Assembly (NCBI GenBank): GCA_965221125.1
Contig: CBDCRW010000005.1
Coordinates: forward strand, 384,001 to 448,000
DNA: 64,000 nt
Direction of reading: 5' to 3'
Origin: Alphaproteobacteria bacterium
GTDB taxonomy: Bacteria; Pseudomonadota; Alphaproteobacteria; UBA828
The notes beneath the pieces were generated by a model. It saw nothing but the letters and a program-made list of their open reading frames with translations. It did no database searches and was not told where the DNA came from. Positions 18,123-34,054 of the stretch are shown piece by piece (the first letter of the stretch is position 1; each line of letters starts with the position of its first letter). Position numbers and translations under genes: made by a program.

Positions 18123-19220
<1,098 letters not shown>

Positions 19221-19230
19221 TGCGCCCCTC

Positions 19231-20106
19231 CTACCCCTTGACCGCGCCCATGGTGATGCCTCGCACGAGGAAGCGCTGGAGCGTCGCCACCGCGAAGAAC
19301 ACCGGGAGCGTGCCGAGCACCGAGAGCGCCGCGATCTTCGTCCAGAAGGTCGACTGGGCGCCGTAGTAGTGGGTGACCAGCACCGGGAAGGTCAGCACCT
19401 CGGTGCGGGTCAGGATCAGCGCGAAGACGAACTCGTTCCACGCGAAGATGAAGGTGAACACCGCCGTCGCGAAGATTCCGGTGCGCGCCATGGGGAAGAC
19501 GATCTTGCGCAGCGCCTGCCAGCGCGAGCAGCCGTCGGTCAGCGCGCTCTCCTCCACCTCCACCGGGATGTCCTCGATGTAGCCGCGCATCATCCAGATC
19601 ACGTAGGGCAGGTTGAAGGCGATGTAGAGCAGGATCAGCCCGATGTAGCTGTCGATCCAGCCCAGCCAGACGAACAGCAGGAAGACCGGGAAGACGATGA
19701 CGATGGGCGGGATCATCCGCTGCGAGATGATCCAGATCGCGAGGTTCTGCCCGCCGGTCTTGAAGCGCGCGATGCTGTAGGCGGCCGCCGTGCCGATCAC
19801 CATGGCGACGACCGTGGACACGGTGGCGATGATCAGGCTGTTGTAGATGGCCCAGACGTCGCCGTCCTTGAACAGGACCCCGAAGATGCGAAAGGTCGGC
19901 TGCTCGGGGAACCAAACCGGCGGGCGGGCGAAGATGTCGCCTGCCGACTTGATCGACGTGATGAAGAGCCAGTAGACGGGGAAGAGGAAGAACACCAGCA
20001 CCACCAGCGCGAGCAGGAAGCGCCAGGCCAGGCGGCGGCGCTCGCGGGTGAGCCAGTGCGGCCAGCGGCTGGGGGGCTGGGGGGCCGGCGTGTCGGATAC
20101 CGTCAT
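19231..20106 (-). CDS. Carbohydrate ABC permease (MalG-like)
   Basis: EESALTDGC (EAA loop), FAWNEF, GITMGAVKG. Confidence 0.92.
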   Translation of the reverse strand: MTVSDTPAPQPPSRWPHWLTRERRRLAWRFLLALVVLVFFLFPVYWLFITSIKSAGDIFARPPVWFPEQPTFRIFGVLFKDGDVWAIYNSLIIATVSTVVAMVIGTAAAYSIARFKTGGQNLAIWIISQRMIPPIVIVFPVFLLFVWLGWIDSYIGLILLYIAFNLPYVIWMMRGYIEDIPVEVEESALTDGCSRWQALRKIVFPMARTGIFATAVFTFIFAWNEFVFALILTRTEVLTFPVLVTHYYGAQSTFWTKIAALSVLGTLPVFFAVATLQRFLVRGITMGAVKG

Positions 20107-21017
20107 CGCGCAATCTCCACGCGCTTCAAGGCGAAGATGACGATGATCGAGAGCAGGATGATCACCAGGAAGGCGATCGCCCCCGCGTAGCTCGTCTCGA
20201 ACTCCTTGAAGGCCCGGATGTAGGTGTAGATCGAGATCGTCTCGGTCATCGTGCCGGGGCCGCCCTTGGTCATCGCCCAGATGATGTCGAAGATGCGGAA
20301 GAGGTCGAGCGCGCGGATCAGGATGGCGATGATGAGCACCGGCTTGATCACCGGCAGCGTGATCTTGAAGAAGATCTTCCAGAACGAGGCGCCGTCGATC
20401 TCGGCCGCCTCGATCAGGCTGCGGTCAACGTTCGACAGCGCGGCCAGCAGGATCAGGAACATGAACGGCGTCCACTGCCACACTTCGCAGATCAGGATCG
20501 CCGGATAGACCCACTCCGGCCGGGACAGCCAGAGGATCGCCACGTGCTCCGTCGTGAACCAGTTGATGATCTGGTTGATCGGCCCGTACTGGTTGTCGAA
20601 CATCAGCCGCCAGGTCGAGCCCGCGACGATCGGCGAGATGACGGTGGGGATGATCAGGAGGGCGATGAACACCTGCTTGAGCGGCATCTTCTCGAGGAAG
20701 AGCTGCGCCATGAGCAGGCCCAGCACCAGCTCGATGGGGAGCGCGATGGCCAGGATCAGGAAGGTGTGGCCCATCGATTCCCAGAGCCGCGTGTCCGAGA
20801 AGAGGGCTGCGTAGTGCTTGCCGCCGGACCAGGAGGTGTCCTCGGCCAGCATGGTGATGTCCTGGAAGCTGACGATGCCGGTGTGGATCAGCGGGTAGAG
20901 GCCGACCATCAGGAGCACGATGATCGAGGGCGCGATCACCAGCCACTTGAAGTGCCGGTCGGCGAAGATGCTCGCGCGGCGACCGATGTGCGGGTTCCGG
21001 CCCGCGACGGCCGTCAT
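20103..21017 (-). CDS. Carbohydrate ABC permease (MalF-like)
   Basis: WQWTPF, EAAEIDGAS, MTKGGPG; overlaps the next gene by 4 nt. Confidence 0.92.
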   Translation of the reverse strand: MTAVAGRNPHIGRRASIFADRHFKWLVIAPSIIVLLMVGLYPLIHTGIVSFQDITMLAEDTSWSGGKHYAALFSDTRLWESMGHTFLILAIALPIELVLGLLMAQLFLEKMPLKQVFIALLIIPTVISPIVAGSTWRLMFDNQYGPINQIINWFTTEHVAILWLSRPEWVYPAILICEVWQWTPFMFLILLAALSNVDRSLIEAAEIDGASFWKIFFKITLPVIKPVLIIAILIRALDLFRIFDIIWAMTKGGPGTMTETISIYTYIRAFKEFETSYAGAIAFLVIILLSIIVIFALKRVEIAR

Positions 21018-21315: not shown

Positions 21316-21765
21316 ATGAGTCAGATCGGCTACGCCATGCAATTCAAGGGGTCCGCCGGGCCGAAAGAGGGCAAGGAAAACGAGCTCTGGGCCAAGTCGG
21401 GCTCCACTACCAACGGGCTCTCCACCGCGCTCGGCGCAGGCGGCCCCACCCTCGCCATCGACGAGGCGGCCTCGCAGCGGGCGACGTTCACGTCCAACGT
21501 GCAGATTCTCGAGGACGGCACGTTCACCGAGGACGGGACCATCGATTTCGGCGAGGCCGGCACGCTCGACTTCAGCACCATCGGTACCGGGTGGATGGGG
21601 CCGAGCGCGGTGGACGGGCTCACGCACGGCGGAATCAGCTGGCGGATCGACGGCGGCACGGGCCCGCTCGCGGGCGCGAGCGGCATCATCACCTCCAACT
21701 TCACCGTCTCGGGCGCCGGCGAAGTCACCGACAACCAGTGGGGCGTGATCTTCGTCGGTGACTGA
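21316..21765 (+). CDS. Hypothetical protein, probably all-beta (allene oxide cyclase/dirigent-like barrel)
   Basis: RBS GAGGGAG; host-like codon usage; WRIDGGTGPLAGASG motif. Confidence 0.7.
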   Translation: MSQIGYAMQFKGSAGPKEGKENELWAKSGSTTNGLSTALGAGGPTLAIDEAASQRATFTSNVQILEDGTFTEDGTIDFGEAGTLDFSTIGTGWMGPSAVDGLTHGGISWRIDGGTGPLAGASGIITSNFTVSGAGEVTDNQWGVIFVGD

Positions 21766-22477
21766 CGCGCGCGTACGCTCGCGCACCGGGCGGAGAGCGG
21801 ATGGCGTGAGCCGTAGTCCGAGACCGAAAGACGCGGCCACGCTGGTGCTGGTGCGGGGCGGCGCGAATGGGCCGGAGGTCCTGATGGGCCGCCGCCCCCG
21901 CCGCCAGGTCTTCATGCCGGATCAATACGTGTTCCCCGGCGGCGGCGTCGAGCCCTGCGATCGCTGGGTGCGCCCGGCGACGGAGCTTCGGCCCGGCGTG
22001 GCAGCCAGGCTTGCGCGCGCATGCACGCCGGGGCGCGCCCGCTCGCTGGCGGCCGCGGCGGTGCGCGAGACCTTCGAGGAGACGGGCCTTGCGCTCGGCC
22101 TGAAAGCGTCGGACGTGAACGGGCGGCTGCGGCCCGAATGGCAGGCCTTCCACGCGACCGGCCTCGCGCCCGCGCTCGACAGGCTCGACTACATCTACCG
22201 CGCGGTCACGCCGCCGGGGCTGCCGCGGCGCTTCAACGCGCGCTTCTTCCTCGCCCGCGCTGACGACGCGTCGGGAACGCTTGCCGGCAACGGCGAGCTG
22301 CTCGATCTCGGCTGGTTCCCTGTGGCGCAGGCGATGGACCTGCCGATCCCCTACATCACCGCCGTCGTGCTGGAAGAGCTCGAGCACATGTACGCCTCAC
22401 CCCCCGATCCCGACGCCGACCGCCCCGTGCCGGTCTGCATCCGCGTCGGCCGCGACCACATCCACAGCCAAGAGTAG
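21758..22477 (+). CDS. NUDIX hydrolase
   Basis: PKDAATLVL, VFPGGGVE...AAVRETFEETG, TPPG.PRRFNARFF. Confidence 0.88.
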   Translation: MTDARVRSRTGRRADGVSRSPRPKDAATLVLVRGGANGPEVLMGRRPRRQVFMPDQYVFPGGGVEPCDRWVRPATELRPGVAARLARACTPGRARSLAAAAVRETFEETGLALGLKASDVNGRLRPEWQAFHATGLAPALDRLDYIYRAVTPPGLPRRFNARFFLARADDASGTLAGNGELLDLGWFPVAQAMDLPIPYITAVVLEELEHMYASPPDPDADRPVPVCIRVGRDHIHSQE

Positions 22478-22634: not shown

Positions 22635-23648
22635 CTACTCCGCCGAGACCCTGACCAGCAGCTTGCCGAAGTTGCGCCCGTCGAACAGGCGCTGGAAGGC
22701 CGCCGGCGCGTTCTCGAGCCCGTCCACGATGTCCTCCCTGTAGGCGAGCCGGCCCTCGCCAAGCCAGCGGGCGAGGCGCTTGCGCGCATGCTCGTAGTGC
22801 GCGCCGTAGGAGTAGATGTTGAAGCCCTTCACCTCGGTCTCGGTGAAGAGGATCGGCGCGAGGTGGCTCGCGACCCTGGGCGGCTCGGTGGCGTTGTAGT
22901 GCGCGATGCCGCCGCAGATCACCACGCGCGCACCGTGAGCGAGCAGCGGATAGATCGCATCGCCGATGGGCCCGCCCACGTTCTCGAAGTAGACGTCAAT
23001 GCCGTCCGGGCACGCCGCGGCAAGCGCGCCCGGCAGGTCGTCCCCGTGCCGGTCGATGGCCTCGTCGAAGCCAAGCTCGCCGGTGAGGTAGCGCAGCTTC
23101 TCCGTTCCGCCGGCGATGCCGACGACCCGGCAGCCGGCGATCTTCGCCACTTGGCCCACGACCGCGCCGACCGCGCCTGAGGCCGCCGAGATCACCACCG
23201 TATCGCCGGGCGCCGGCCGGCCCACCTTGACGAGGCCGAGGTAGGCGGTGAGCCCCGGCATGCCGAGCACGCCGATGGCGGTGGACAGCGGCCCCAGCGT
23301 CGGGTCCACCTTGCGCGCGCTCGCGCCCTGCGCGATGGCGTAGTCCTGCCAGCCGGCGTAGTCGTCCACGATGTCGCCCGGCGCGAAGCCCGGATGGCGG
23401 CTTTCGACCACCCGGCTCACCGCGCCGCCCACGATCACCTCGCCGAGCGCAAGCGGTGGGTAGTAGCGGAGGTCCGTGCCCATCCTGAGCCGCATGTAGG
23501 GGTCGAGCGAGAGCCAGATCGTCCGCACCAGCAGCTCGCCGTCCTGCGGCGTCGGCACCGGCCCCTCGACGAGCCGAAGATCCGTCTCCTTCGGCGGCCC
23601 GACCGGGCGCGCGGCGAGCACGATCTGGCGGTTGCTGTTGGCAATCAT
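22635..23648 (-). CDS. NADP-dependent oxidoreductase (CurA/prostaglandin reductase family)
   Basis: [35 protein letters not shown]. Confidence 0.9.
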
Positions 23649-23775
23649 GGGCGACGCTCCCTCCTTGGCGAGAGCGTTGAGTCTATGCATGGGGCCGGTG
23701 GCGGCAAATTCGGCTGTTTTCGGCGCGTGCCCCCGACTACTCTGGTGCGGCGATGCAAAAGGGAGGCAACGCCCG

Positions 23776-24471
23776 ATGAACCTCAACCCGACGGAGCAGG
23801 AGCGGCTCACCATCTTCACCGCCGCCCAGCTTGCGCGCGAGCACAAGCGCCGCGGCATCAAGCTCAGCCACCCGGAGGCGGTCGCCTACATCTGCGACGA
23901 GCTCCTGATGTGCGCGCGCGAAGGCCGCCCGCTCAGGGACCTCATGGGCTACGGCGCGGAGATCCTGAACTCTGACGACGTGATGCCGGGCGTGCCGGAA
24001 CTCATTCCGGTGATCCACGTCGAGGCGGTGTTCCCGGACGGCGCCAAGCTCATCACCGTGCATCAGCCGATCCGCCCCGGCAAGGCGGAGACCGCGCCCG
24101 GCCCCCGCGCCGGCGAGATCATCACGCCGGACGCCGAGATCGAGCTGAACGCGGGCCGGAAGACCGGGGCGGTCAGGGTGACCAACACCGGCGACCGCCC
24201 GGTGCAGATCGGCAGCCACTTCCACTTCTTCGAGGTCAACCGGGCGCTCGATTTCGACCGGGCGTCGACTTTCGGCATGCGCCTCGACATTCCCTCCGGC
24301 ACCGCGGCCCGCTTCGAGCCGGGGCAGGAGAAGGAGGTGGCGCTGGTGGAGTTCGGCGGCAGAGGCCGCATCAGCGGCTTCAGCAACCTCACCGAGGGCA
24401 TGATCGACTCGCCCGAGGTCAAGGAACAGGCGATTGCCCGCGCGAAGGCGGGCGGCTTCCGGGGAGCGTAG
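23776..24471 (+). CDS. ureAB: Urease-like fused gamma/beta subunit
   Basis: [31 protein letters not shown] (gamma) fused to [34 protein letters not shown] (beta). Confidence 0.9.
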
Positions 24472-24475
24472 GCAA

Positions 24476-26185
24476 ATGGTGAAGATCGCGCGCGAGACCT
24501 ATGCCCGCTACTACGGGCCGACCAAGGGCGACAAGATCAGGCTGGGCGACACCTCGCTGATCGGCGAGATCGAGCACGACCACACCGCTTACGGCGACGA
24601 GTGCTGGACCGGCGCGGGCCGGGTGATGCGGGACGGCATGTCCTACGACGCCCACACGTCCGCCGCCGACGGCGCCATCGACATGCTGGTGGAGAACGCG
24701 ACCGTCATCGACCCCGTGCTGGGCCTGGTGAAGGCCGACATCGGCATCAAGGACGGCAAGATCGCGGGCGTCGGCAAGGCCGGCAACCCCAACACGCAGG
24801 ACGGCGTGGATTCCAACCTCGTCTGCGGCCCCAACACCACCTACTACCCCGCCAGCGGGCTCATCGTGACGCCGGGCGGCATCGACGTGCACGTCCACTG
24901 GATGTCGGCGGACCAGTGCAACCACGCGCTGGCGAGCGGGCTCACCACCATGATCGGCGGCACCATGGGGCCGCTCTTCGCCATCGACTGCGGCGGCCCG
25001 TGGAACACCTACCGCATGCATGAGGCATCCGAGGCCTGGCCGATCAATTTCGGTTTCTTCGGCCGGGGCTCGTCGCACGACCCGGCGACCGTCGCCGAGC
25101 ACCTCGACGGCGCCATCATCGGCGTCAAGATTCACGAGGACTACGGCGCCATGCCGGCCACCATCGACGCCTGCCTGCGCGCCTCGGCCGAGCACGACTT
25201 CGCGGTGCAAATTCACACCGACACGCTGAACGAGTCCGGCTTCTACGAGGACACGATGGCGGCGATCGCGGGCCGCACCATCCACATGTACCACACGGAA
25301 GGCTCCGGCGGCGGCCACGCGCCGGACATCATCCGCTGCAACGGCGAGCCGCACTGCCTGCCGTCGTCGACCAACCCGACCAACCCCTACACGGTCAACG
25401 TCTTCGACGAGCAGCTCGACATGACCATGGCCTGCCACCTGCTGCGCTACGACCTGCCGGAGGACGTGGCCTTCGCCGAGAGCCGGGTGCGCCACGGCAC
25501 CATCGCGGCCGAGGACGTGCTGCACGACATCGGTGCGGTCTCGATGTTCGGCTCCGACAGCCAGGGCATGGGTCGAATCAACGAGGTCATCACCCGCTGC
25601 TGGCAGCTTGCCAGCAAGATGCGCGACCAGCGCGGGCGGCTGCCTGAGGAGACCACGGCCGACGCCGACAACGAGCGCATCAAGCGCTACATCGCGAAGT
25701 ACACCATCAACCCGGCGATCGCGTTCGGCATCGACCAGTACGTGGGTTCGCTGGAGCCCGGCAAGATGGCCGATCTGGTCACCTGGAAGCCCGCCTTCTT
25801 CGGCATCAAGCCCTTCGGCGTCATCAAGGGCGGCTTCGTCGCCTGGGGGCTGAGCGGCGATCCCTCGGGCAGCTACTTCCAGACCGAGCCGGTCGTCATG
25901 CGACCGCAGTTCGGCCACCACGGCCGGGCGCCGGCGACGCTGAGCGCCAACTTCGCCCACCGCCGCGCGCTCGACATCGACGTGCCGGGCCGCATCGGGC
26001 TGCGCAAGCCGATCCTGCCGATCGGGAGCTTCACCAAGCTCACGAAGAAGGACATGCTGCACAACGACGCCTGCCCAGACATCCGCGTCGATTCCCAGAC
26101 CTTCGAGGTCTTCGTCGACGGGACGCTGGCTGCGTGCGAGCCGATCGACACGATCACCCTCGGCCAGAACTACCTGCTGCGCTGA
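24476..26185 (+). CDS. ureC: Urease-like alpha subunit, divergent
   Basis: [50 protein letters not shown]: metal ligands conserved, substrate-pocket segments altered. Confidence 0.88.
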
Positions 26186-26190
26186 GCGCC

Positions 26191-27048
26191 TTGGCCGCCA
26201 CCGCCCTGCCGGCCGCCCGGCCCAACGAGGGGCCGCAGGCCGCGCTCCGCTTCGCCCGCGCGCCCGACGGGCGGAGCTACATCGCGCGCCAGCGCGTGGG
26301 CTACCCGTTCCACATCACCCGGCCGTTTCATTTCGACGAGGCGCCGGCCGGCGCGCTCACGCTCTACCTGCAATCGGTCTCCGGCGGCATCTACCAGGGC
26401 GAAGACCTGCAGATGACCTGCCGCGCGGACGCCGGCAGCGCCGCCCACGTGACCACGCAGGCGGCGACCATCGTGCACCGCATGCCCGCCGCGCCGGCAC
26501 GGCAGACGGTGGCGCTGGAGGCGGCGGACGGCGCGCTGCTCGAATACCTGCCGGACCCGCTGATCATGTTTCCGGGCGCCCGGCTTACTTCCGTGCTGGA
26601 GATCGAGGCGTCGGCGGACGCCACCGTCATCGCGTCCGAGAGCTTCGCCCACCACGACCCCGGCGGCGAGGACCGCCGCTTCGAGAGTTTCGAGGCCGAG
26701 TTGCGAATCCGCGATGAGGGAGGACGCCTGCTCGCGCTGGAGCGCTATGCCCTCGCCGGCGACCGCCTGACCGAGGGCGCAGGCCAGATCGCGCGCTGGC
26801 CCGCGCAGGGCAGTTTCGTCGTCGCCCACCGTGGCCCTGCCCGCGAGGGCATCCTGGCCGCTCTCCGCGCGGCCCTTGCGCCGACGGACGATTTCTACGG
26901 CGGCGCCTCGGCGCTTGCCAATGAGGCCGGCGTTGGCGTGCGCCTGCTTGCGCGGGATGGTGCGCGGCTGCGCAGCGGGCTGGAGGCCGCGTGGCGCGCG
27001 GTCCGCCTCGCCCTCTACGGCGCCCCCCCGGCTCCCCGCCGCAAGTGA
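26191..27048 (+). CDS. ureD: Urease accessory protein UreD/UreH
   Basis: SGGIYQGEDL, HVTTQAAT, LEYLPDPLI.FPGA; directly follows ureC. Confidence 0.85.
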   Translation: MAATALPAARPNEGPQAALRFARAPDGRSYIARQRVGYPFHITRPFHFDEAPAGALTLYLQSVSGGIYQGEDLQMTCRADAGSAAHVTTQAATIVHRMPAAPARQTVALEAADGALLEYLPDPLIMFPGARLTSVLEIEASADATVIASESFAHHDPGGEDRRFESFEAELRIRDEGGRLLALERYALAGDRLTEGAGQIARWPAQGSFVVAHRGPAREGILAALRAALAPTDDFYGGASALANEAGVGVRLLARDGARLRSGLEAAWRAVRLALYGAPPAPRRK

Positions 27049-27071: not shown

Positions 27072-27503
27072 TCAAGCTCCTTCCCGAGGCGCGCCCCGGC
27101 TTGAATTGCGTTCGATGAGGTCCCACCGGTTGCCGTATTTGTCCGCAAATACGGCTACGATGCCGTATTGTTCGTTTCGCGGTTCCTCCTGGAACTCGAC
27201 ACCCCGGCTCATGTAGGTCCGATAGTCGCGCCAGAAATCATCCGTCGTCAGAAACAGGAATACGCGTCCACCCGACTGGTTACCGATCGCAGCGACCTGG
27301 CGTTCGCCATCCGCCTTGGCCAGCAGAAGACATGTGCCGAACCCCGGCGAAACCACGATCCATCGTTTCTCGTCTGAAAGCCTCGTGTCCTCAACGAGCG
27401 TGAAGCCGAGTGTCCCTACGAAATAGTCGATCGCCTCGTCATAGTCCGGGACCAGAATCGTGACGGCTCCAACGGACCTCTGAGGGCTTTCAGATTCCTT
27501 CAT
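27072..27503 (-). CDS. VOC/glyoxalase family protein
   Basis: DYDEAIDYFV..LGF.LVED, GNQSGGRVFLFL.TDDFWRDY, YGIVAVFADKYGNRWDL; visibly lower GC than its neighbours. Confidence 0.88.
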   Translation of the reverse strand: MKESESPQRSVGAVTILVPDYDEAIDYFVGTLGFTLVEDTRLSDEKRWIVVSPGFGTCLLLAKADGERQVAAIGNQSGGRVFLFLTTDDFWRDYRTYMSRGVEFQEEPRNEQYGIVAVFADKYGNRWDLIERNSSRGAPREGA

Positions 27504-27585: not shown

Positions 27586-28680
27586 TCACGCGCCGGACCC
27601 TCCCTCGGCGGCGACCGGCACGGGCCTGCCCAGCCGGGCGGACTCCTGCGCGGCGAGCGCGAAGCGCAGAACCTGCCGGCCCTCGCGCGCGGTGAGCACG
27701 GGCCGCCCGCCCTGCGTGAGAACCTCCAGGAAGTGGCGCGTGGAAAGCACGAAGCTCTGCTCCCAGCCGGTCTCCACGTCGCGGATCTCGGTCAGCGCGC
27801 CGTCGCGGTAGAGCGCGAGCGGCGCCGCGTCGCCGAGCCGCCCGTGGCCGCCGTTCATCCAGATCACGCCCTTGCTGCCGGTGATCTCCACCCGGTCGTC
27901 CTGGGCATAGTGCCGGGTCGCGATCTCCAGCTCCGGCGAGTGGACGATCTCCAGGTTGCCGATGCGGTTGCCGGGAAAGCGGAACGAGACCATCGAGGGC
28001 GCATCCAGCCGCTCCCGGTGGTCCGCCGTCTCGGTCTGCCCGATGAAGGCGTGGACCTCCTCCGGCTCGCCCATGAAGTGCCAGGCGAGGGCGAACTTGT
28101 GGTGGCCGTCGTCGAACACCAGCGGCCCGCCGCCGGACTGCTCGGGCCGCTGCCGCCAGGCGATGGCGCTCTCCGGCACGTCCCAGGCGGTGGCACTCCG
28201 CCCCGGGTTGCTCTTGATGCGGATGGAGAGCGGCGTGCCGATGGCGCCGTCTGCGATCAGCGCCCGCGCCCGGAGGACGGGCGGATAGAACACGAAGTTC
28301 TCGAACACCTTGAACGGGCGCCCCGAGGCGTCCGCAGCGTCGACCAGGTGGTCGGCCTCCGCGAGCGAGATGCACATCGGCTTCTGCAGCGAGACGATCT
28401 TGCCGGCGGCGACCGCCTTCAGCGCCGCGTCGAGGTGCAGGTGGTGCGGGAGCAGGATCTCGACGAGGTCCACGTCCGGGCGGACGAGCAGGGCGTCGAT
28501 GTCGCCGCAGATGGCGACGTCGTCGAGGCCCCAGGCCGCCGCGCGCGCCTCTGCGCGCGCCGTGTCGACGTCGCAGAGCGCCACGATCCGCGCCAGCGGG
28601 CTGGCCAGGTACTCGATGGCGTGCAGGTCGGAGATGCGACCCGTGCCCACGATGCCGACGCCGATGGGACCGCTCTGCAT
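27586..28680 (-). CDS. Gfo/Idh/MocA family oxidoreductase
   Basis: GIVGTGRIS, PHHLH, LQKPM, GGGPLVFDDGHH. Confidence 0.88.
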   Translation of the reverse strand: MQSGPIGVGIVGTGRISDLHAIEYLASPLARIVALCDVDTARAEARAAAWGLDDVAICGDIDALLVRPDVDLVEILLPHHLHLDAALKAVAAGKIVSLQKPMCISLAEADHLVDAADASGRPFKVFENFVFYPPVLRARALIADGAIGTPLSIRIKSNPGRSATAWDVPESAIAWRQRPEQSGGGPLVFDDGHHKFALAWHFMGEPEEVHAFIGQTETADHRERLDAPSMVSFRFPGNRIGNLEIVHSPELEIATRHYAQDDRVEITGSKGVIWMNGGHGRLGDAAPLALYRDGALTEIRDVETGWEQSFVLSTRHFLEVLTQGGRPVLTAREGRQVLRFALAAQESARLGRPVPVAAEGGSGA

Positions 28681-28840: not shown

Positions 28841-29689
28841 TCAAGCCCCTTCTGCGAGTTCGATCTCGATACGGCAATGGTCGCTTGGTCCCCATTCCTC
28901 GGGCGCGTTCAGAGCACGCACTTTGAGCAAGCCGGCTAGCTCGGTGGAGGCGAAGACGTAGTCCAACTGGCGCTTCGCCGTTTTTGGCGATTGCTGGTTG
29001 GAATGAAAGGTTGGGACATTCTTGCTGTCCCTCGGAAGTTCGTCCGGCCAGGGATCGGCCTGCCTGCCGTTCGGAAATTCCGGCCCGACGCAGGGCAACC
29101 CCATGACCTCCATCCGGTCGAACACGGTCTTGTAGCGGGCGCCCCAGTACTCGCTGCCGTACTCACCGTAGCCTCGCAGGATGTTCAGATCGCCGGCCGC
29201 CAGAATGCGGTGACCATCTTCTTTCGCGATGAACGCGGACAAGTCGGAAACGACGTGGTGAGCGGAGCCGTCCGAGAAAAGGAAGTTGCTTCCTGCTCGG
29301 GTATGTGTGCGCACCCACTGCGCATACATCGAAACGACTATCAGGGAGTTGCCCGAGGGGAGCTTGACCGCTGCAGCGGCAAGCGTGCCGGGCCAACTGG
29401 CCACCAAGTCCCTGGGCTCTGACTTGTCGATCGACCTCGCTTCGATCCAATCGATTTCAATGCGGTTCGAGAGTTTGACAATTGCCGTTCTGAACTTGGA
29501 AACGCCGCCTATGAATTTGGTCTCCCACGGCGCCGAATCGACCTCAATTGCGGGGTTCTTTCGAATTCGTTCTGCGACATCGGGCGGGGGCTTGCCGGCC
29601 TCCTGAAGCAGCGCCAGGTCGACATCCATGTCGAGCAGGCGACGCCACGGTTCGTACCTGTGAGCCATGTTCCAGGAGATGATGTTCAT
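28841..29689 (-). CDS. Endonuclease/exonuclease/phosphatase (EEP) family protein
   Basis: IISWN, LALLQE, AGDLN, QLDYVF, GPSDH motifs; RBS GAGGTG before ATG 29689; lower GC. Confidence 0.82.
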   Translation of the reverse strand: MNIISWNMAHRYEPWRRLLDMDVDLALLQEAGKPPPDVAERIRKNPAIEVDSAPWETKFIGGVSKFRTAIVKLSNRIEIDWIEARSIDKSEPRDLVASWPGTLAAAAVKLPSGNSLIVVSMYAQWVRTHTRAGSNFLFSDGSAHHVVSDLSAFIAKEDGHRILAAGDLNILRGYGEYGSEYWGARYKTVFDRMEVMGLPCVGPEFPNGRQADPWPDELPRDSKNVPTFHSNQQSPKTAKRQLDYVFASTELAGLLKVRALNAPEEWGPSDHCRIEIELAEGA

Positions 29690-29894
29690 CGCACCTCGCA
29701 CCTTGGGGGCATCCCTAGCTCCTCTGTCGGCATCTATTCGTCTCTACAGTGGTGTTCTGTCATATCGGTATGTTCGCATGGAATACTTTGACGATTTCGC
29801 CGTGTATTCGTTGACACCCAGAGGAGCGATGCGGTTCACTGCCGGATTGCCCAACCATGATGCTGGCATGTCAACCGCACGGGGGGAAAAATCC

Positions 29895-31166
29895 ATGATC
29901 ACTCTCAACAGGCGCGGGCTGCTGGCCGCCGTGGCGGTCGTGCCGGCCCTGGCGCTCGGCGCCCCCGCCTTCGCGCAAGGCGGCGACGTCACGCTCACGC
30001 ACTACTTCACCGGCGAGTTCGGGCTCAAGATCTTCAACGAGCAGGTCGCGAAGTTCGAAGCCGCCACCGACTACACCATCAAGAACAGCCCCATCGGTCA
30101 CGAGGACTTCAAGACCGACATCCTGGTGCGCGCGGCCGGCGACAGCCTGCCCGACGTCTTCAGCTACTGGGCCGGGGCGCGGACGCAGTTCGTCGTCGAT
30201 GCCGGAGCTCTCCATCCCATCGACGACATGTGGGCGCGGGACGGCCTCGACAATGTCGTCGCGAAGTCCGTGGCCGACAGCGCCACCATGTACAACGGCC
30301 AGCGCTACCTGGTGCCGTTCAACTACCACTACGCGGGCATGTTCTATAACACCCAGGTGATGGCGGACGCGGGCGTCACCGAGATGCCGACGACCTGGGA
30401 CGGCTTCATGGCGCTCTGCGAGACGCTGAAGGGCAAGGGCGTGACACCCATCGCGCTCGGCTCGAAGAACCGCTGGCCCGCCCAGTTCTGGTTCGACTAC
30501 CTGCTGCTCGGCACCGCCGGCCCCGACTACCGCGCGGGCCTGATGAACGGCTCCGCGGCTTACGACGACGCCGAGGTCAAGGCCGCCATGGCGATGTGGA
30601 AGGACTTGGCGGACAAGGGCTACTTCGCGCCCAACGCCAACGCCGATTCATGGACGGATGCGTCCGACAAGGTGGCGCGCGGCGATGCGGCCATGACCCT
30701 CATGGGCACCTGGATCACCGGCTACTGGAACGGGCTGGGGCTCGAGCCCGGCAAGGACTACGACTTCTTCCCGTTCCCGGCGATCGCCGACGGCGTGCCC
30801 GTGTCGGTGGTGGGCCCGGTGGACGGCCTGGTCATCTCCAACGACGGAGAGAACCGCGCGGGCGCCGAGGCGTTCCTCAGCTTCATGATGTCGAACGCCG
30901 ACGTGCAGGCGAGCTGGACCGGCGCCTACGGGGCCTTGTCGGCCAACGTCAACGTGGACCCCGCGAACTTCAACGTGGTCATGCAGCGGGTCTCCGGCGT
31001 CGTAGGCGGAGCCGACAACTTCGCGTTCAACTACGACCTCGCGACGCCGCCGCCGGTGGCCGAGGTCGGGCTCTCCATGTTCTCGCGCTTCATGGACGAC
31101 CCGAGCCAGGTGGACGACATCCTGGCGCAGGCGGCCGCGGACGCAGCACAGGCGTTCACGGAATAA
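29895..31166 (+). CDS. Carbohydrate ABC substrate-binding protein, with Tat-like signal
   Basis: LNRRGLL signal; PDVFSYWAG, PTTWDGF, GVTPIALG, AAMTLMGTW. Confidence 0.9.
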   Translation: MITLNRRGLLAAVAVVPALALGAPAFAQGGDVTLTHYFTGEFGLKIFNEQVAKFEAATDYTIKNSPIGHEDFKTDILVRAAGDSLPDVFSYWAGARTQFVVDAGALHPIDDMWARDGLDNVVAKSVADSATMYNGQRYLVPFNYHYAGMFYNTQVMADAGVTEMPTTWDGFMALCETLKGKGVTPIALGSKNRWPAQFWFDYLLLGTAGPDYRAGLMNGSAAYDDAEVKAAMAMWKDLADKGYFAPNANADSWTDASDKVARGDAAMTLMGTWITGYWNGLGLEPGKDYDFFPFPAIADGVPVSVVGPVDGLVISNDGENRAGAEAFLSFMMSNADVQASWTGAYGALSANVNVDPANFNVVMQRVSGVVGGADNFAFNYDLATPPPVAEVGLSMFSRFMDDPSQVDDILAQAAADAAQAFTE

Positions 31167-31183
31167 GCGCAGTCTCGTGCAGG

Positions 31184-31216
31184 CGGGCCGCCGGGCGGTA
31201 TCTCCCCGGCGGCCCG
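31184..31216. other. Intercistronic stem-loop after the SBP gene
   Basis: CGGGCCGCCGGG / CCCGGCGGCCCG perfect 12-bp stem. Confidence 0.6.
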
Positions 31217-31243
31217 TTCACTTGCCGGCATGAGCAGTGACCG

Positions 31244-32125
31244 ATGGAACGGGAGAACCGTTTCTGGCGGGTGATCCTGTTGGCGCTGCCGCTTGCGGTG
31301 TTCGCGGCCTTCGTTGTCTGGCCGCTGGCGAGCTCCTTCTACTACAGCTTCACCAACTGGAACGGCTTCAATCCCGACTACGACTACGTCGGCTTCGCTA
31401 ACTTCCTCAAGATCCACACCGACAAGCTGTTCCTCAACGCCGCGATCAACACGGCGTTCTGGATCGTGGCCGCGATCGTCGTGCCGACCGCGCTGGGGTT
31501 AGGCCTTGCGCTCCTGATCGACAGCCGCATCCCCGGCGGCTCGGTGTTCAAGTCGATCTTCTACCTGCCGATCTGCCTCTCGGCCGTGGTGGTGGGGCAG
31601 ATCTGGGTCTGGATCTACCAGCCGGACTGGGGGCTGCTGAACACCGTGGTCGAAGCGGTGAGCGGCGAGAACTTCAACTACGCGTGGCTCGCGAAGCCGG
31701 ATAGCGCGCTCTGGTCGGTGATCCTCGCCTGGTCGTGGCAGCAGACCGGGCTCTCGATGGTGATCTTCCTGGCAGGCCTCACCACCATCCCCGAGGAGCT
31801 TCTGGAGGTCTGCGAGATCGAGGGCGCGAAGGCCTTCCAGCGCATCCGCCTCGTGGTCATCCCCCTGCTCACGCCGGCCACGGTGGTGGTGATCGCGCTC
31901 AACGTCATCAACTCGCTCAAGGGCTTCGACATCCTCTACACCATGACCGGCGGCGGGCCGTTCAACAGCTCCGACACGCTGGCCATGCACATGTACAACG
32001 AGTCCTTCAAGAAGTACCTCATGGGCTACGGCAGCGCGATCTCGGTGGTCCTGTTCCTGATCGCGCTCACCATCATCCGCCTCTACTTCCGCCAGCTGCG
32101 CAAGGTGGACGAGCTCCATGGCTGA
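31244..32125 (+). CDS. Carbohydrate ABC permease (MalF-like)
   Basis: SFTNWNG, WQQTG, MTGGGP, GYGSA. Confidence 0.92.
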   Translation: MERENRFWRVILLALPLAVFAAFVVWPLASSFYYSFTNWNGFNPDYDYVGFANFLKIHTDKLFLNAAINTAFWIVAAIVVPTALGLGLALLIDSRIPGGSVFKSIFYLPICLSAVVVGQIWVWIYQPDWGLLNTVVEAVSGENFNYAWLAKPDSALWSVILAWSWQQTGLSMVIFLAGLTTIPEELLEVCEIEGAKAFQRIRLVVIPLLTPATVVVIALNVINSLKGFDILYTMTGGGPFNSSDTLAMHMYNESFKKYLMGYGSAISVVLFLIALTIIRLYFRQLRKVDELHG

Positions 32126-32978
32126 CATCGCGTTCAGCCCGGTGCCGGCCAGGCGGTTCAACCCGTGGCCTGCGGTGATCTTCATCTCGCTCGCGGTCCT
32201 CGCGGTGCTGTTCCTGGCGCCGACCGCCGGCGTGCTGCTGTCGTCGATCAAGACCACCCGCGACATCGCTTTGGGCCAGCTGTGGACGATCCCGTCGGAG
32301 CTCTTCTGGGGCAACTACGCCGAGGTGCTCGCGAACCCCGCCGTTCACCGCTACTTCCTCAACACGCTGCTCGTCACCGCGCCCGCGACGGTGGCCTCGA
32401 TCGCGCTGGGGACGCTCGCCGGCTACGTCTTCGCTAAGCTGCCCTTCCGCGGCGGCAACCTGCTCTTCCTCGTCGTCGTCTCCGGCATGTTCTTCCCGCC
32501 GCAGGTGATCCTGATCCCGCTGTTCCGCCTCTTCAACGCGATGGATCTGATCGACACGCTGTGGCCCATCATCGTCATCCACACCGCGATGGGCATCCCC
32601 ATCTGCACGCTGCTCATGCGCAACTTCTTCGCCACCGTGCCGAGCGCGCTGCGCGAGGCGGCGATCCTGGAAGGCGCCAACGAGTGGCAGGTGCTGACCC
32701 GGGTGGCGCTGCCGCTCAGCCTGCCGGCGCTCGCGGTGCTGGCGACGCTGCAGTTCACCTGGATCTGGAACGACTTCCTCTGGCCGCTCATCTTCACCCA
32801 GTCCGACGAGAAGCGGACCATCATGCTGGGGATCGTGAACCTGCAGGGGCAGTACTCGGTGGCCTGGGGCGTGCAGGGCGCGCTGTCGCTGATCGCGAGC
32901 CTGCCGACGCTCGTGGTGTTCCTGTTCTTCCAGCGTTACTTCATCAAGGGGATGACCATGGGCGCGGTGAAGGGATAG
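32118..32978 (+). CDS. Carbohydrate ABC permease (MalG-like)
   Basis: EAAILEGA, WNDFLWP, FQRYFIKGMTMGAVKG. Confidence 0.92.
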   Translation: MADIAFSPVPARRFNPWPAVIFISLAVLAVLFLAPTAGVLLSSIKTTRDIALGQLWTIPSELFWGNYAEVLANPAVHRYFLNTLLVTAPATVASIALGTLAGYVFAKLPFRGGNLLFLVVVSGMFFPPQVILIPLFRLFNAMDLIDTLWPIIVIHTAMGIPICTLLMRNFFATVPSALREAAILEGANEWQVLTRVALPLSLPALAVLATLQFTWIWNDFLWPLIFTQSDEKRTIMLGIVNLQGQYSVAWGVQGALSLIASLPTLVVFLFFQRYFIKGMTMGAVKG

Positions 32979-32980
32979 CG

Positions 32981-34051
<1,071 letters not shown>

Positions 34052-34054
<3 letters not shown>

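Follow-up and report, generated by a model that had tools for sequence, protein, structure and literature searches.

This work concerns a urease-like gene cluster at positions 23776-27048 of a 64,000-nucleotide stretch of an alphaproteobacterial genome; this whole stretch is called the window throughout. In an initial annotation, the cluster had been described as a fused gamma-beta subunit gene followed by an alpha subunit gene and ureD, and this composition was confirmed by open reading frames (ORFs), Pfam and NCBIfam. All three ORFs are open, lie on the + strand, and are tightly packed:

23776..24471 (+): ureAB, fused urease gamma/beta subunit, 231 amino acids (aa); Pfam Urease_gamma at residues 1-99 and Urease_beta at residues 113-208
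24476..26185 (+): ureC, urease alpha (catalytic) subunit, 569 aa, assigned below to sub-lineage B of the fused-subunit lineage
26134..27048 (+): ureD, urease accessory protein, 304 aa; Pfam UreD, 137.2 bits, residues 78-276

The gamma and beta domains are both found within the single 231-aa protein, which scored 328.5 bits against the NCBIfam model NF009671 ("bifunctional urease subunit gamma/beta", cut-off 243). UreC was matched by Pfam Urease_alpha (PF00449) and Amidohydro_1 (PF01979), and it scored 786 bits against NF009686. Against the NCBIfam urease alpha model TIGR01792 it reached 732.8 bits, a narrow pass with a margin of 53 bits over the cut-off of 680. A strong Shine-Dalgarno-like AAGGGAGG lies 8-9 nucleotides (nt) 5' of the ureAB ATG, and ureC starts 4 nt past the ureAB stop. 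The GTG at 26134 makes ureD overlap ureC by 52 nt, and the true start of ureD is therefore possibly located further downstream.

Active site and phylogenetic placement of UreC

UreC aligned over its full length with solved ureases at approximately 50% identity, the best match being the jack bean enzyme (623.7 bits). Klebsiella aerogenes (Ka) numbering was taken via Escherichia coli O157 UreC (567 aa) as a ruler, which carries the expected H, H, K, H, D, H, H, G, C, H, R and D at positions 134, 136, 217, 219, 221, 246, 272, 277, 319, 320, 336 and 360, respectively. The metal ligands H139, H141, K218, H247, H273 and D361 of the window protein align to Ka H134, H136, K217, H246, H272 and D360, and the catalytic and substrate-binding residues H220, D222, G278, H321 and R337 correspond to Ka H219, D221, G277, H320 and R336. 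All these residues are invariant across 46 aligned ureases, both three-subunit and fused. The earlier statement that the metal ligands are all present was thus confirmed against the solved ureases, the ruler and the 46-sequence alignment. A model of UreC generated with AlphaFold2 (AF2) matched 39 urease chains with template modelling (TM) scores of 0.94-0.96; the next fold was allantoinase, with a score of 0.44.

Four motif differences pointed out in the initial annotation were recovered in the alignment. The active-site loop that follows GGxxGP is 4 residues shorter than the corresponding GGGTGPxxGTxATTCTPGPW, and the counterpart of Ka Ala167 in it is ambiguous: it is C172 according to MAFFT and to the HMMER alignment with Helicobacter pylori UreB, and A169 according to the HMMER alignment with jack bean urease. 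The flap reads MACHLL in place of MVCHHL, which keeps the catalytic histidine (Ka His320) and replaces His321 by leucine. SQGMGR is found in place of SQAMGR, and since Ala363 (Ka) is replaced by glycine, the backbone carbonyl at this position would be kept. At the N-terminus, TGAGRV stands in place of FGGGKV (FGGGKVIRDG in three-subunit ureases).

The phylogeny of UreC was calculated from 91 sequences (IQ-TREE quick search, LG+G4), with the Shimodaira-Hasegawa-like approximate likelihood ratio test (SH-aLRT) as the only support measure. The sequences comprised 67 full-length matches from 78 loci, 7 plasmid records, 15 of 120 listed database homologues, the window protein and its paralogue in the same genome. 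The window protein branched outside the canonical three-subunit ureases, as the initial annotation had anticipated, within a clade of 73 fused-subunit sequences (SH-aLRT 99). In this tree, the fused-subunit lineage forms a supported clade that is sister to the three-subunit ureases. The short loop and glycine at Ka 363 are present in every member of the fused clade shown, and GMGR was found in 122/122 sequences examined. Protein representatives clustered at 50% gave a best match of 53% identity; at this level the ureases collapse and offer no resolution inside the lineage.

Two groups can be distinguished within the fused clade. Lineage A (28 sequences, support 98) includes Pseudomonas syringae, Aminobacter, Methylophaga, Labrys and Hyphomicrobium, and is uniform in its motifs HGGGKT, GPITVGIDCG and MVCHHL. 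Sub-lineage B (43 sequences, support 100) contains the window protein. In this group, the catalytic His320 is invariant and the flap residues 319 and 321 vary freely, giving AHQM, AHML, AHLL, GHML, AHRL, IHHL, CHIL, CHQL, PHML and CHLL among others. Changes specific to sub-lineage B include W222Y/F and H321X. Within it, the window protein belongs to a subclade of 23 sequences (support 97) with the motifs TGAGRV and M[AS]CHLL; only H321L, V318A/S, W222Y and TGAGRV are confined to this subclade.

When compared with the three-subunit nickel ureases (Klebsiella aerogenes UreABC, Sporosarcina pasteurii, Helicobacter pylori UreAB and jack bean), the window enzyme shows approximately 50% identity, a TM score of 0.95 (AF2 model), identical metal ligands, the carbamylated-lysine motif, equivalents of His219, Asp221, His320 and Arg336, and the same flap architecture. 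It differs from them in the fused gamma/beta subunit, the Ala167 loop shortened by 4 residues, and the exchanges A363G, H321L, W222Y and V318A.

The fused-subunit type has been known from genome comparisons since 2008, and from its sequence the window cluster is a member of it. The bioinformatic description of ureEF(AB)CGD clusters by Contreras-Rodriguez et al. (2008; PMC2492869) lists this order, with fused ureA-ureB, as a third urease cluster structure in Bradyrhizobium sp. BTAi1 and Pseudomonas syringae B728a (PSYR2197). A gene order ureEFABCGD is mentioned for Mycobacterium smegmatis (PMC4222082). Apart from this mention and the 2008 comparison, we found no literature on a characterised member or on a urease named "second", "atypical" or "fused". 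The window cluster shares with the ureEF(AB)CGD type the fused gamma/beta subunit, the UreC clade (SH-aLRT 99), the short loop, SQGMGR and the same kind of helpers, and its proteins are 64-65% identical to those of P. syringae. Unlike that type, it lacks the one-block order E-F-(AB)-C-G-D: only AB-C-D is present, with ureF beside the paralogue and ureE-ureG on another contig. In addition, the window enzyme falls into sub-lineage B, which evolves faster, and carries M[AS]CHLL and TGAGRV instead of MVCHHL and HGGGKT.

Clusters consisting of ure(AB)C only, of the Streptomyces coelicolor SCO5526 type, have been described for Streptomycetaceae (PMC2492869). They resemble the window cluster in having fused gamma/beta and alpha subunits with no adjoining ureE/F/G; a plasmid-borne example from Embleya (L103) is much more divergent, with 41% identity, lies on a branch of 1.27 substitutions per site, and falls outside the fused proteobacterial clade. 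This Embleya pair (L103, 5276-7662) has no helpers and is located directly after adenylation and condensation genes of a non-ribosomal peptide synthetase, between phosphotransferase genes, and a role in secondary metabolism is conceivable from this position. Another plasmid-borne, long-branch fused-subunit urease, with FGAGKT, MTSHHL and SQGMG, was found on the conjugative IncU plasmid pKLZT-1 of Klebsiella pneumoniae (L102, 4299-9375). It is accompanied by ureG, ureF, an Urt-like ATP-binding cassette (ABC) transporter and a solute-binding protein (SBP), and is distinct from the chromosomal Klebsiella urease.

Helper genes and paralogous ureases in the genome

The genome assembly (4.58 Mb, 7 contigs, 92% complete) encodes one UreD, one UreF, one UreE and one UreG, distributed over three loci, with ureD alone inside the window. 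The window copy is the single match to PF01774 (ureD). The single ureF match is found on the contig of the window, C5, at C5:543572-544012, directly 5' of a second ureAB-ureC pair. The single ureG match is located on contig C4 (238 bits, fused-type), with ureE directly upstream. Accordingly, the observation in the initial annotation that ureE, ureF and ureG do not occur in the window was correct. Its conclusion that the accessory genes are missing, or that maturation follows a different route, was not borne out, since the genome holds a full ureD/F/E/G set and orthologous clusters at approximately 80% identity carry these genes in cis.

These orthologues, which have the same motifs as the window protein, are arranged as a single block ureE-ureF-ureAB-ureC-ureD-ureG (confirmed by Pfam in L033 and L036). 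The helpers of the window's genome are 66-82% (UreG), 52-66% (UreE; 7 loci, 63-66% in 6 of them) and 53% (UreF) identical to the in-cis helpers of these blocks and, judged by sequence, are their cognate orthologues. In the genus-level group of the window's genome, ureAB-ureC-ureD stands alone in 10/10 close orthologous loci. As the loci of this group contain only AB-C-D and the helpers are kept elsewhere, the dispersal of the helpers is a rearrangement within the group, and not a loss.

The isolated ureE-ureG pair (C4:279002-280104, - strand) lies between an acyl-CoA dehydrogenase-like gene and a gene for an AMP-binding enzyme. Because the long ureG ORF overlaps ureE, the real start of ureG is probably further downstream. 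In an alphaproteobacterial metagenome-assembled genome, a 544-aa open frame (L046:8354-9988) comprises UreF (86-238), Urease_gamma (312-410) and Urease_beta (425-521); it may be a ureF-ureAB gene fusion or an artefact of choosing the longest ORF.

The suggestion that the enzyme is a urease paralogue proved to be right. A second ureAB-ureC pair, belonging to lineage A and 64% identical to the window's genes, is found 136 kb away on the same contig. The pair (L009:8158-10569) is part of a cluster at C5:543421-547822 (L009:7422-11823) with the order ureF-ureAB2-ureC2, followed by a gene for a cytosine-deaminase-like amidohydrolase. The latter scored 260 bits against NF004636, which is below the cut-off. 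It is conserved 3' of lineage-A ureC: the copies of a close relative (L114) and of a marine relative (L107) are 92% and 73% identical, respectively. A third ureC, of the three-subunit type, is present as a frameshifted C-terminal remnant only (C4:340666-341144; L011:8667-9145), with 77% identity over 151 aa and 93% over 45 aa to the intact UreC of relatives. The initial annotation had advised looking in the genome for ureFG and for a canonical ure cluster; ureF and ureE-ureG were found elsewhere in it, and the canonical three-subunit cluster was represented by this remnant alone. In three close relatives inspected, the third copy is a three-subunit ureA-ureB-ureC-ureE-ureF-ureG cluster, and the three-subunit ureABCEFG cluster has been deleted from the window's genome. 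Five relatives keep two ureG genes, scoring approximately 338 and 240 bits. In marine relatives, lineage A is represented by ureAB-ureC-amidohydrolase with no helpers in cis, and sub-lineage B by a cluster with the full in-cis helper set. Acidocella facilis ATCC 35904 combines a three-subunit urease with a sub-lineage B cluster (L076).

Since the three-subunit cluster is gone and the sole ureG is fused-type, the organism would rely on two fused-type ureases and dispersed helpers. The retention of this set after the loss of the three-subunit urease also argues that fused ureases need the fused-type helpers. That the lineage keeps its own set beside a three-subunit urease with its own helpers hints that helpers cannot be exchanged between urease types. 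One UreD/E/F/G set can evidently be split over three loci, apparently serving two paralogous ureases, and both "orphan urease" calls and annotation pipelines should allow for split helper sets.

Comparison with 10 orthologues (Nei-Gojobori) gave ratios of nonsynonymous to synonymous substitution rates (dN/dS) of 0.04-0.12 for ureC, 0.15-0.32 for ureAB and 0.11-0.28 for ureD. ureC is under strong purifying selection, and purifying selection also acts on ureAB and ureD. No stops or frameshifts were found in the 10 close orthologous loci compared, out of a wider set of 67 full-length loci. Metatranscriptome runs contained at most 0.21 of the sampled words, which is no evidence of expression or habitat.

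Substrate, metal and maturation of the enzyme

Neighbourhoods elsewhere in the fused lineage point to urea and nickel. In Aminobacter, the fused-urease cluster (lineage A) adjoins urtBCDE, a pair of genes for an SBP and an ANTAR protein, and HupE/UreJ. The Methylobacterium fused-urease cluster adjoins genes of urate catabolism and urtA. Lineage A provides the sole ureC of Methylophaga sulfidovorans and Hyphomicrobium sp. GJ21. The sole ureC of one complete 3.9-Mb chromosome belongs to sub-lineage B, and its cluster is bordered by an Opp/Nik-type ABC transporter and ureD/G/F/E, as well as by two genes of the urea-releasing arginase family. The window's genome itself contains an SBP-urtBCDE operon (C5:30277-35129) that is 51-58% identical to the cluster-linked operon of Aminobacter, and its UrtA-like binding protein shares 55% identity with the Aminobacter SBP linked to the fused-urease cluster. 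Urea or a short amide may be the ligand of this operon. The genome encodes a NicO-family permease, and HupE/UreJ was not found in it (92% complete). No Nik-like binding protein was detected in the window, and a NikA-like probe gave no strong match in the genome. The matches to the UrtA-like, NicO and NikA-like probes are all located outside the window; no gene-by-gene scan of the window covered every family of transporters.

Our favoured reading, to which we assign a probability of about 0.65, is that the cluster encodes a functional nickel urease isoenzyme of the fused gamma/beta lineage that is matured in trans. UreAB and UreC would form the apoenzyme, on which the UreD encoded in the cluster would dock. 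UreF, encoded beside ureAB2-ureC2, and UreE and UreG, encoded on the other contig, would then complete the nickel-insertion complex in trans, and this complex would carry out GTP-dependent nickel insertion and lysine carbamylation. One dispersed helper set would in this way serve two paralogous ureases. Urea would be hydrolysed by the standard mechanism, in which the di-nickel centre carries a bridging hydroxide, the carbonyl is polarised by His220 and the flap residue His321 serves as general acid (numbering of the window protein). We infer that the metal is nickel, that the two enzymes share helpers and that the physiological substrate is urea.

Several observations speak against a nickel urease of this kind. 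No urea- or nickel-related gene adjoins the ureAB-ureC-ureD cluster, and the UrtA-like binding protein of the genome reached 405 bits, compared to the NCBI cut-off of 492.75 for urea. At 45 positions that are conserved to at least 94% in 17 three-subunit ureases, the window's subclade differs; these include W222Y beside D221, the flap exchange H321L and the remodelled Ala167 loop, and most of them are shared with lineage A. Confidence of the AF2 model is low in the active-site loops (161-170, 250-254, 271-280 and 301-340). Flap positions 319 and 321 are far more variable in sub-lineage B than in lineage A or the three-subunit ureases: at least 16 six-residue flap motifs occur in 43 sequences of B, compared with 2 in 28 of A and 1 in 17 three-subunit sequences. 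Three ureC matches per genome were found in 10/10 close relatives and two or three in 4/5 further genomes examined, and paralogues kept side by side over long divergence invite functional divergence. Finally, no published assay of a fused-lineage enzyme was found in the literature, so that urea is the inferred substrate for the lineage as a whole.

Ureases are classic enzymes that accept a very narrow range of substrates, and a natural relative acting on another substrate would be notable, although the evidence here points the other way. The initial annotation had proposed a remodelled pocket and, from it, a different or larger substrate. Of the changes in the pocket and the motifs, only H321L, V318A/S, W222Y and TGAGRV are specific to the subclade. 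The proposal is weakened, because the short loop and A363G, the two largest changes, are common to the entire fused-subunit lineage, and because this lineage includes genomes with a sole ureC and clusters associated with urtBCDE, urtA and genes of urate catabolism. We regard it as possible, at considerably lower probability than a urease, that the window enzyme is a neofunctionalised paralogue: a nickel enzyme matured by UreDEFG, with a pocket tuned to non-urea or wider substrates such as formamide or acetamide, N-substituted ureas, semicarbazide or hydroxyurea, or carbamates, that complements the lineage-A urease of the same cell. It coexists with a lineage-A paralogue in the window's genome, in all 10 close relatives and in 3 marine ones, and both copies remain conserved in lineages that have diverged to 80% identity. 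The diversity of flap motifs in sub-lineage B and its specific W222Y/F and H321X changes would fit such a role, as would the position of the Rhizobium tumorigenes sub-lineage B cluster after an acetamidase/formamidase gene and that of the Aminobacter lineage-A clusters behind a pair of AmiC/AmiR-like SBP and ANTAR genes. However, neither the catalytic histidine nor any of the urea-binding side chains has changed, and Cys319 is dispensable for urease activity, with C319A/S/D/Y variants among the solved urease structures. Moreover, the complete chromosome mentioned above, with its two arginase-family genes beside the cluster, has a sub-lineage B gene as its sole ureC, and across the B clusters no conserved neighbour indicates another substrate. 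We are more doubtful still that sub-lineage B as a whole consists of nickel amidohydrolases that no longer use urea, its subclades being tuned to different small amides, carbamates and substituted ureas and kept beside a true urease. If this were the case, the shared, dispersed helper set would be the first example of urease maturation machinery serving a non-urease.

A urease that needs no helpers or no nickel, analogous to the iron urease UreA2B2 of Helicobacter mustelae (PDB 3qga), would explain the shedding of ureE/F/G; UreA2B2 is likewise a second urease in its genome with no adjoining ureE/F/G. ureD is the sole in-cis helper in the genus (10/10 loci), and the missing HupE/UreJ is in line with this idea. 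We nevertheless consider it very improbable: the in-cis ureD is retained under purifying selection, cognate ureF, ureE and ureG are retained elsewhere in the genome even after the loss of the three-subunit urease, and in the approximately 80%-identity orthologues, whose motifs are identical, all four helpers are still encoded in cis. The window protein also shows no special affinity to the H. mustelae iron urease, against which it scored 593.6 bits, compared with 603-624 bits against nickel ureases (615 for H. pylori UreB), and the genome encodes the NicO-family permease. Just as little weight can be given to a catalytically idle copy, whether as a decaying duplicate or as a protein with a non-enzymatic role. 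The cluster is stripped of most of its helpers, its TIGR01792 score exceeds the cut-off by just those 53 bits, and the genome has already lost one urease; on the other hand, every catalytic residue is intact, and the low dN/dS of ureC and the 10 uninterrupted orthologous loci argue against decay. A functional nickel urease remains our preferred reading of the cluster.

Surroundings of the cluster

Two further features border the cluster on its 5' side:

22635..23648 (-): gene for a CurA/YncB-like NADPH-dependent reductase, a neighbour outside the urease system; NF058644, 432.9 bits (cut-off 440)
23649..23775: divergent intergenic region between the reductase gene and ureAB, 127 bp

This agrees with the description of the divergent neighbour as an NADP-dependent reductase in the initial annotation. 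Its ATG, on the opposite strand, is preceded by AAGGAGGGAG. A consensus scan revealed no sigma-70-like promoter in the intergenic region, and a TGGC...N...GG stretch upstream of ureAB, inspected by eye as a candidate sigma-54 site, misfits the -24/-12 consensus. The reductase gene adjoins the urease cluster in 9/10 close orthologous loci and in none of the loci at approximately 80% identity; as the adjacency is missing at the latter, a functional link was rejected and the arrangement was treated as synteny only.

The ORFs at 28841-29701 (-), 27072-27503 (-), 21316-21765 (+) and 21758-22477 (+) of the window had no NCBIfam match at E <= 1e-8. The gene at 27586-28680 (-) encodes a dehydrogenase of the Gfo/Idh/MocA type, whose iolG-like match is weak. 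On its two sides, the region is flanked by ABC import operons, at 18123-21017 (-) and 29667-34054 (+) of the window. According to their ORF translations, each encodes an ATPase with a GPSGCGKST Walker A motif and two permeases, and the second also encodes a binding protein; they look like sugar-type importers.

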